Virus record (IMG/VR): IMGVR_UViG_2718218305_000006
DNA: 64,000 nt
Strand: one strand, 5' to 3'
Origin: a virus
Lineage: Duplodnaviria > Heunggongvirae > Uroviricota > Caudoviricetes
The translations under genes were made by a program, and so were the position numbers. The notes beneath the pieces were generated by a model. That model was given only the letters and a program-made list of their open reading frames with translations. It did no database searches and had not been told where the DNA came from. Positions 18,932 to 19,533 of the stretch are shown here, in pieces. The stretch's first letter is position 1. Each line of letters opens with the position of its first letter.

Positions 18932-19120
18932 TTATCCAGCCGGTGTTTCGTTATTCAGGTACAGCGATACTTTTTTTACCGGGAGGCATTCACCAGAAAT
19001 TTTTTGCTCGTCTCTTGCCTGGAGGCAGGATTCTTTACTGGCATAAATTCCGGTAATCACATTCTGTGATTCACCCGTTATAAGAAAAACCGTCATCATC
19101 AGTGCAAATGCTGAAGTCAT
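18932..19120 (-). CDS. Small membrane protein (N-terminal hydrophobic helix), YdfD-like position downstream of dicB
   Basis: 62 aa MTSAFALMMTVFLITGES..; start ATG overlaps dicB stop (ATGA). Confidence 0.45.
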   Translation of the reverse strand: MTSAFALMMTVFLITGESQNVITGIYASKESCLQARDEQKISGECLPVKKVSLYLNNETPAG

Positions 19121-19305
19121 TGACGTTCTCCGAAAATACCAAGTTCAAGAAGAGCAATTCGGGAAAGTATGGAATTATCATTGAGCAGATAAGGCTCATA
19201 TTTCCTCATGTTAATGGCATCTTCAGTAAACTCCCGGTTACTGAGCAGAACACCAATATCAAAACAACCTTCAGACGTATTAACGTTTGGTAATAACGTT
19301 TCCAT
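19117..19305 (-). CDS. dicB: Cell-division inhibitor DicB homologue
   Basis: 62 aa METLLPNVNTSEGCFDIGVLLSNREFTEDAIN.. matches recalled N-terminus of E. coli DicB; lies directly downstream of a DicF-like RNA. Confidence 0.65.
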   Translation of the reverse strand: METLLPNVNTSEGCFDIGVLLSNREFTEDAINMRKYEPYLLNDNSILSRIALLELGIFGERQ

Positions 19306-19479
19306 TATCGCGTCCTCAACAATGAATTTTGTGATGCAGTGCCTGGTGCCTCCAGGTGACGTTAACCAGTTAACAATTAACGCCGGATACAGAGAATCCA
19401 CCCATAACACTGTTTTTGGTTTTAACTGTTCCGCGTGCGCTTAGCCGCATTCACCGCATCACAAAATTCACTTTAAAAA

Positions 19480-19533
19480 GGGCGGCAGAGCAGCCACGGA
19501 GTAAAACTGATACCGCCAAACGTCACCAGAAAA
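19480..19533 (-). ncRNA. dicF: DicF antisense sRNA (ftsZ-targeting), with intrinsic terminator
   Basis: Minus strand reads TTTCTGGTGACGTTTGGCGGTATCAGTTTTACTCCGTGGCTGCTCTGCCGCCC followed by T5; 52/53 identity to recalled K-12 DicF; coordinates +/-2 nt. Confidence 0.7.

Follow-up and report, generated by a model that had tools for sequence, protein, structure and literature searches.

Among prophage-encoded inhibitors of cell division, DicF and DicB are textbook cases. In Escherichia coli K-12 they are encoded by the Qin prophage, in an operon with the order ydfABC-dicF-dicB-ydfDE. The Hfq-dependent DicF RNA derives from a polycistronic transcript, from which RNase III cleavage releases a 190-nt form and RNase E cleavage a 53-nt form, and a 72-nt form has been described whose 3′ end is made by RNase III. 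Published targets of DicF include ftsZ, manX, xylR, and pykA, which are repressed, and pchA, which is activated in EHEC. DicB acts via MinC and blocks phage receptors as well (PMC6832061). Lambda Kil and Rac KilR are comparable in that an FtsZ-directed division block is encoded in a lambdoid pL operon, but these proteins are unrelated to DicB. To our knowledge, Kil of lambda has no small RNA (sRNA) partner.

Modules of the same kind are known from phages and from other E. coli prophages. For example, phages Tritos (OV696610), mEp460, vB_EcoS-813R8, and vB_EcoS-640R1 carry the same DicF-dicB module as the one described here, with 93% DNA identity across the leader, DicF, the spacer, and the 5′ part of dicB. 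In Tritos, an annotated DicF is followed by dicB, ydfD, a full-length exonuclease VIII, and an excisionase. Papers citing Melson and Kendall (2019) credit the prophages of O157:H7 with four DicF copies, and tables for EDL933 list DicF_1 to DicF_4 (Neuhaus et al. 2017); these copies come from the same organism and the same kind of locus as the present module.

The window analyzed here is a 64,000-nt stretch of a Caudoviricetes record (IMGVR_UViG_2718218305_000006) and contains two tandem prophages: the tail end of the first (position 1 to ~16.5 kb) and the second (~17.0–62.2 kb), which have a 10-kb tail region in common that is 96.6% identical. The 1.2 kb surrounding DicF and dicB matches E. 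coli O157:H7 strains at 100% identity, and many O157:H7 genomes share a 25-kb stretch at 99.9%. The locus is very probably a canonical dicBF module of an O157:H7 lambdoid prophage, with K-12-like transcription, processing, and division block. Like Qin, the second prophage has its module downstream of the immunity region, and both share the order ydfA-like gene, noncoding leader, DicF, spacer, dicB, ydfD-like gene, recE-like gene, and int, with ~290 nt of leader and the 174-nt spacer being about 95–100% identical between the two. They differ in that ydfB and ydfC give way here to a gene of 212 aa and, on the opposite strand, one of 69 aa; DicB and YdfD are only 63% and 45% identical to their K-12 counterparts, and the prophage in the window retains a full lambda-like late region.

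The DicF sRNA itself is encoded on the minus strand at 19480–19532 and is 53 nt in length. It matches the Rfam DicF model (RF00039) at 19480–19531 with 75.0 bits, well above the gathering score of 48 (E = 1e-14), and model positions 1–52 are covered in full. Alignment with dicF from the Qin prophage of K-12 MG1655 gives identity at 52 of the 53 positions, and the sole difference, A39G, lies in the inner stem of the terminator, where U.G takes the place of U-A and the pairing is kept. At its 3′ end is an intrinsic terminator, consisting of a GGCGGUA..UGCCGCC stem followed by UUUUU at 19479–19475. A preliminary description of this DNA, prepared from the letters alone, had identified the RNA correctly, including its 52/53 identity and its terminator, but had set its 5′ end one base too far, at 19533. 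Two of the checks proposed there, namely a search with the Rfam DicF covariance model and a comparison with K-12 dicF and dicB, both support the identification. Chance matches are excluded by the E-values for DicF and for DicB, given below.

The RNA is predicted in silico to form a duplex with the K-12 ftsZ start region at −38.5 kcal/mol, exactly as for K-12 DicF, with a z-score against shuffled sequences of −2.35 for the K-12 allele. A functional effect of A39G was considered and rejected, as the predicted ftsZ duplex leaves this base unpaired and the hairpin loses only 0.5 kcal/mol of stability. A cross-species scan for the DicF core, using one genome per species, gave hits in Escherichia and Shigella only, plus two MAG contigs that are probably mis-binned, and thus added no phylogenetic depth for covariation.

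Downstream of DicF, dicB occupies 19117–19305 on the minus strand, with an ATG at 19305 and a stop codon ending at 19117. It begins 174 nt past the sRNA, in good agreement with the estimate of about 170 nt in the preliminary description. The 62-aa product is matched over residues 1–62 of 62 by the Pfam DicB family (PF05358; 125.5 bits against a cut-off of 27, E = 6.4e-37). The gene overlaps by 4 nt with a ydfD-like DUF1482 gene (Pfam; 18932–19120, minus strand). Much of the divergence from K-12 DicB falls in the C-terminal half, where residues 36–62 are poorly conserved and where a mosaic junction was located near codon 35. Across 109 loci, DicB sorts into two discrete allele classes with few recombinants, and the window carries the class II allele, which is found in ~30 of these loci and differs chiefly at residues 36–62.

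A discrete allele class with a mosaic junction and a poorly conserved C-terminal half is what would be expected if class II DicB were a functionally diverged paralogue, one that does not use the MinC route or that has other partners (e.g., inner-membrane receptor targets), in which case the module would do something other than its K-12 counterpart. We regard this as unlikely, however, in view of the full-length Pfam match, the shared length of 62 aa, and the unchanged position, ydfD-like overlap, and upstream RNA elements. Moreover, when the sequences are compared by eye, the C-terminal helix keeps its hydrophobic pattern.

The module is set in an early-left operon, as the preliminary description had placed it; its gene order matches the K-12 dicBF operon, and it occupies the place of the lambda pL operon, with a cI-like repressor gene and a pL-like promoter bordered by operator-like sequence on its upstream side. 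The repressor gene (21175–21813, minus strand) is an uninterrupted open reading frame (ORF) of 212 aa whose product has an HTH at its N-terminus and an S24 peptidase domain at its C-terminus (Pfam HTH_3 and Peptidase_S24). It matches the transcriptional repressor family PHROG_4 over residues 2–211 and aligns with full-length lambda CI (3bdn), while the PGAP call covers its last 112 aa only. Phages vB_EcoS-813R8 and vB_EcoS-640R1, both of which possess the dicF-dicB module, have an annotated cI with 98% identity to this protein. In the window, a P22-Cro-like gene lies on the strand opposite the repressor gene. The K-12 repressor DicA differs from it, being without the residues for RecA-mediated cleavage. 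A Ser/Lys dyad-like DSM and RKL are retained in the repressor of the window, with the putative cleavage site aligning as Ala-Ala/Ala-Ser, not Ala-Gly. A disrupted repressor is what Asadulghani et al. report for Sp11 (see below for the relationship to Sp11), which conflicts with the uninterrupted ORF seen here; SOS inducibility is thus uncertain.

A candidate pL promoter with its operator-like palindrome spans 21062–21108 on the minus strand, the promoter itself (TTGACC-17-TAAACT) being at 21062–21090. Its match to consensus is 9 of 12 positions, which by itself is at chance level in the promoter scan, and its role as the operon promoter is inferred. The palindrome TGTTTTGATAAAAAAACA abuts the −35 of this pL-like promoter, and members of the same palindrome family are seen two to three times in the interval that separates the cI-like gene from the cro-like one, at 21812–21830 and 21860–21875. 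With the palindrome in both of these places, it is plausible that division inhibition is coupled to derepression. The first gene of the operon is a ydfA-like DUF1391 gene (20730–20963, minus strand; Pfam E = 1e-29; PGAP start at 20882), followed by a gene of 212–216 aa (20080–20730, minus strand) that belongs to phrog_2151 (E = 2e-147), is called a hypothetical protein by PGAP, and is absent from K-12 Qin. Within the operon but on the plus strand is a 69-aa gene (19870–20079) with a full-length match to phrog_4274 (E = 1e-51) and a strong GGAGG Shine-Dalgarno sequence. This last gene was found in 5 of 109 DicF loci, and ydfC in ~40% of loci; the genes upstream of the conserved DicF unit are evidently exchanged freely between loci.

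Between these genes and DicF is a noncoding leader of ~335 nt (19533–19869, minus strand), delimited by K-12 alignment, the conservation profile, and the absence of a conserved ORF. From ~19820 downstream, ~290 nt of it are homologous to the 340-nt noncoding ydfC-dicF intergenic region of K-12, and everything from that point to dicB codon 35 is about 95–100% identical to Qin. The stretch upstream of DicF was thus rightly called noncoding in the preliminary description. The proposal that it is the processed precursor is likewise right by homology, since the K-12 region has documented RNase III and RNase E processing, but this is already established knowledge. When the published end is placed on the window, the RNase III-generated 5′ end of the 190-nt species is expected at ~19665–19669. 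An antisense ORF of 95 aa at 19534–19821 was rejected as a gene, being open in 1 of 101 distinct loci and having internal stops in 44. In minimum free energy (MFE) folds, leader segment 19638–19620 engages the terminator's 3′ arm as an antiterminator-like alternative; no comparative support for this pairing emerged, and phage 75/02 Stx does not conserve the segment.

Conservation of the module was profiled as identity to the window in 20-nt bins across 101 distinct loci, picked solely by a 25-nt DicF core. All bins but one between 19263 and 19682 reach at least 90% identity, with a sharp drop on both sides, and the conserved unit therefore runs from ~150 nt upstream of DicF, through the sRNA and the complete spacer, to nucleotide 43 of dicB. 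Within the leader, 19533–19682 is ultra-conserved and 19683–19820 moderately so in these same loci. Among 5426 complete E. coli genomes, 4720 (87%) contain a 377-nt noncoding block, with a median of 2 places per genome and no more than 10. With DicF copies of O157:H7 published, the module annotated in phages, and the block this widespread in the species, the novelty implied by the preliminary description does not hold; a known element has been annotated correctly, and the finding is not new.

The same description had called the prophage otherwise complete, which is true of its morphogenesis genes but not of its recombination functions. The packaging, head, tail, and lysis ORFs (38904–59796) are open and of lambda-like sizes. 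In strain Z885, which is 99.7% identical, they are annotated by PGAP as intact through minor tail protein L; for the tail genes beyond, intactness was judged by ORF size. On the other hand, recE (exonuclease VIII) is truncated (17595–18839, minus strand; Pfam Exonuc_VIII), with a RecE-like part at 18038–18839 and the remainder being read-through, and PGAP flags it as incomplete with its C-terminus missing. The integrase is reduced to a C-terminal fragment of 183 aa (17062–17613, minus strand) that covers positions 52–165 of the 172 in the Pfam Phage_integrase profile and is flagged as missing its N-terminus. No excisionase is annotated between the two. The corresponding genes past ydfD are intact in Tritos, where recE has its full length of 2472 nt, and have been lost from the prophage in the window.

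This pattern of losses matches a described O157:H7 prophage. In the Sakai table of Asadulghani et al., Sp11 is listed with a defective integrase, no excisionase, and a defective ExoVIII-type recombination system, together with a lambda-type P loader and a full set of lambda-like morphogenesis genes; experimentally, Sp11 was not circularised, replicated, or packaged. As Sp11 is the only matching row in the published Sakai prophage feature table, the prophage is most likely of the Sp11 type, an assignment made by features and not by sequence. A second correspondence is with EDL933. In the window, DicF lies 7.26 kb from sok and 12.75 kb from STnc100, against 7.21 and 12.71 kb for EDL933 DicF_2 and its neighbors sok_10 and STnc100_6. 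Judged by this spacing and not by sequence, DicF_2 may be the EDL933 counterpart of the copy in the window, and only 5 RNA-seq reads were recorded for it in LB.

With int, xis, and part of recE lost, it is conceivable that the module is a decaying, silent remnant, with DicF and dicB surviving only as relics, either unexpressed or nonfunctional. The inability of Sp11 to excise, replicate, or be packaged would fit such a picture, as would the few reads in LB for the possible EDL933 counterpart. We nevertheless consider it highly improbable. DicF is one structure-preserving base away from its K-12 homolog, the dicB, ydfD-like, ydfA-like, and repressor ORFs are all open, and the noncoding block is strongly conserved, both in the 101 loci and in 87% of genomes. 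Moreover, K-12 Qin has decayed further than this prophage and still has a functional, regulated module, and the four O157:H7 DicF orthologues have been reported as being made under microaerobic conditions.

Between the DicF terminator and dicB, 155 nt of the 174-nt spacer form the core of a predicted structured RNA (19319–19473, minus strand), recognized by its fold and by its resemblance to the STnc100 family in Rfam. Its MFE fold has a z-score of −4.2. A closing helix, P1, is formed by GUGAAUUUUGUGAUGCGGUG and CACUGCAUCACAAAAUUCAU, with its 5′ strand at 19452–19472, and surrounds four inner elements: P2, a short hairpin; P3, a helix with a hypervariable insert of 20–45 nt inside it; P4, a hairpin of 10 bp; and P5, a hairpin of the form CCUGG-AGGCA-CCAGG. 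The published 3′ end of 72-nt DicF, placed at ~19461, lands in the 5′ strand of P1. A promoter-like site on the plus strand of the spacer (19370–19397) was dismissed, since the number of such sites is at chance level (5 found versus 5.6 expected).

The present analysis establishes what each part of the module is, how it is built, how far it is conserved, and where it lies, while processing, targets, and DicB activity are carried over from work on K-12 and EHEC. On that footing, the module would operate in the following manner. Transcription would begin at the repressor-controlled, pL-like promoter, pass through the ydfA-like and 212-aa genes, and enter the noncoding leader, with most transcripts being halted at the DicF terminator. 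RNase E would then trim the 5′ side to yield the 53-nt DicF, while RNase III would give the ~190-nt form. By pairing with the region around the ftsZ translation start, the sRNA would block FtsZ synthesis, and in EHEC it would activate pchA and hence expression of the LEE. Transcripts that read through the terminator would carry the structured spacer, where the 21 bp of P1 are a probable RNase III site whose cleavage would produce both the 72-nt form of DicF and the 5′ end of the dicB mRNA. DicB, once made, would inhibit division via MinC.

A further aspect of the spacer is its relationship to STnc100. In a permissive Rfam search, it aligned to the whole STnc100 model (RF02076) at 34.7 bits (E = 4e-6), a score that is under the gathering threshold of 47. 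A bona fide STnc100 (104.7 bits), of which the spacer is a paralogue, is encoded in the late operon of the same prophage, on the plus strand at 32231–32403, between a sialate esterase gene and the tRNAs that follow a putative Q-like antiterminator gene; a terminator scan placed a terminator-like hairpin after it, at 32428–32446. A covariance model (R1) was built from 22 spacer sequences only. When run on the 64-kb window, its sole hit outside the spacer locus was this STnc100 copy (32248–32388; 50.2 bits, E about 1e-13), while at the spacer locus it also matched the reverse strand (34.3 bits), owing to the palindromic P1 helix. Of 44 base pairs compared between the spacer and the STnc100 copy, 19 are compensatory, spread over all five helices, 18 are identical, and 2 are broken, in an alignment that was fitted to the model and therefore leans towards structure. 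The GGUGAAU junction and the AGGCA pentaloop are invariant between the two subfamilies.

The spacer thus shares a five-helix architecture with bona fide STnc100, and its status as a diverged structural homologue is well supported. The two elements differ in context, however. The spacer sits in the early-left operon, after the DicF terminator and directly before the dicB ribosome-binding site, and has no 3′ terminator of its own, unlike the late copy, which lies between Q and the esterase gene. The STnc100/PasD papers place these RNAs in the late region and leave dicF and dicB unmentioned, and no literature link between the DicF-dicB spacer and STnc100 was found in accessible papers; the connection may be new. 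A nut/boxB-like role for P5 was dropped because the prophage lacks an N-like gene, one of the two copies belongs to the late operon, and the early one follows a terminator.

The spacer also turns up without its usual neighbors. Where other terminator hairpins replace DicF and kil replaces dicB, it is kept with an identical 43-nt core, an example being Shigella phage 75/02 Stx, and the leader likewise precedes kil in related loci. In all, at least eight alternative hairpins with other loops occupy the DicF slot ahead of the spacer cassette, and strong ftsZ complementarity is restricted to those DicF-slot variants with an ACUCC loop. On the tentative reading given below, such swapping of hairpins before a constant cassette would make the locus a modular sRNA platform of lambdoid phages.

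As to what the spacer does, one tentative reading, to which we give less than an even chance, is that it represents an unrecognised, early-operon branch of the STnc100/PasD family that is released by RNase III via P1 and acts as a second regulatory RNA, or else as a cis element of dicB or kil. It is also quite conceivable, if somewhat short of an even chance, that the likeness to STnc100 comes without a function of its own, the element being a mosaic-shared RNase III hairpin that merely separates DicF from dicB. The Rfam score below the gathering threshold, the lack of a dedicated terminator, and the derivation of the pair counts from a model-fitted alignment are all in keeping with a functionless spacer. 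It sits less comfortably with a reciprocal search that recovers only the true STnc100 locus in 64 kb, with the preservation of 19 of 44 pairs by double changes in all five helices, with the junction and loop sequences that do not vary across subfamilies, and with retention of the element beside replacement hairpins and kil.

As for its significance, the finding of the module, in a well-studied defective prophage, adds nothing new in itself, and its worth lies in a correct annotation with two corrections: the prophage is not excision-competent, and its DicB belongs to the second major allele class. The link between the spacer and STnc100 is a modest lead. If it is true, the antisense RNA locus known for longest in bacteria would be connected with the STnc100/PasD family, and K-12 Qin would then provide an easy genetic system in which to study that family.

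The spacer between DicF and dicB, at 19319-19473 on the minus strand, is itself structurally homologous, though diverged, to STnc100, a prophage sRNA that also has a bona fide copy at 32231-32403 (plus strand) in this prophage's late operon. Rfam matched the spacer at a sub-threshold 34.7 bits (E 4e-6), and a reciprocal covariance-model search matched the true STnc100 copy at 50.2 bits. Nineteen compensatory pairs were counted between the two sequences, with GGUGAAU and an AGGCA loop invariant in both.

At least eight other terminator-hairpin variants, differing in their loops and 5' tails, have been found in the slot that DicF occupies here (positions 2501-2753 of comparison locus L131, as well as L135, L138, L142, L144, L145, L151, and others). 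In every case the same conserved spacer comes next, and after it dicB, kil, or another ORF. Only those variants whose loop is ACUCC are still predicted to pair strongly with the ftsZ start region. A near-identical copy of the E. coli DicF region was also found in the Aeromonas jumbo-phage record MT713136.1 (249906-250152) and in L127 and L128, MAG contigs of Veillonella parvula and Collinsella; these three occurrences likely reflect contamination or mis-binning.

Upstream of DicF, the leader segment GGCGGUAAGUAUGGCGGGG (19620-19638, minus strand) resembles the DicF terminator's 5' arm. MFE folding pairs this segment with the 3' arm (19480-19497, minus strand) in place of the local hairpin; this alternative pairing of leader and terminator is a thermodynamic prediction only.

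On the opposite strand within the early-left operon, a 69-aa gene of phrog_4274 (E 1e-51) occupies 19870-20079 on the plus strand, back-to-back with the end of the phrog_2151 gene of 212 aa (20080-20730, minus strand). The smaller gene has a strong Shine-Dalgarno sequence, a search turned up no convincing promoter for it, and it occurs in only five of the 109 DicF loci. Also on the minus strand, the cI-like repressor is an uninterrupted 212-aa ORF with HTH and S24 domains (21175-21813), in contrast to the RefSeq PGAP call, which covers only the C-terminal 112 aa under the name "LexA family protein", and to Asadulghani et al., who describe the Sp11 repressor as disrupted. The ORF shares 98% identity with cI from phages vB_EcoS-813R8 and vB_EcoS-640R1, and its putative cleavage site aligns as Ala-Ala or Ala-Ser.

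Between the replication genes and Q, a sok antitoxin RNA (26741-26915, plus strand; Rfam 113.5 bits) adjoins a Hok/Gef family gene. Two prophage tRNA genes on the plus strand, annotated tRNA-Ile (31209-31281) and tRNA-Arg (31385-31458), directly follow the putative Q-like antiterminator gene, much as tRNA genes are positioned in Stx phages; the stx position is occupied by TerB-family and DUF3927 genes and a 616-aa SASA-family esterase.

Relative to 16000-40999 of the window, most O157:H7 genomes carry an additional insertion of ~5.5 kb in which IS66 family genes are annotated. A 10-kb block of tail genes is common to both tandem prophages (5405-15501 and 49362-59455; 96.6% identity), and a DinI-containing segment is repeated at the right end of each (16539-17024 and 62239-62725). 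The tail-gene and DinI-segment repeats could readily serve as substrates for large rearrangements of the kind described in O157:H7.
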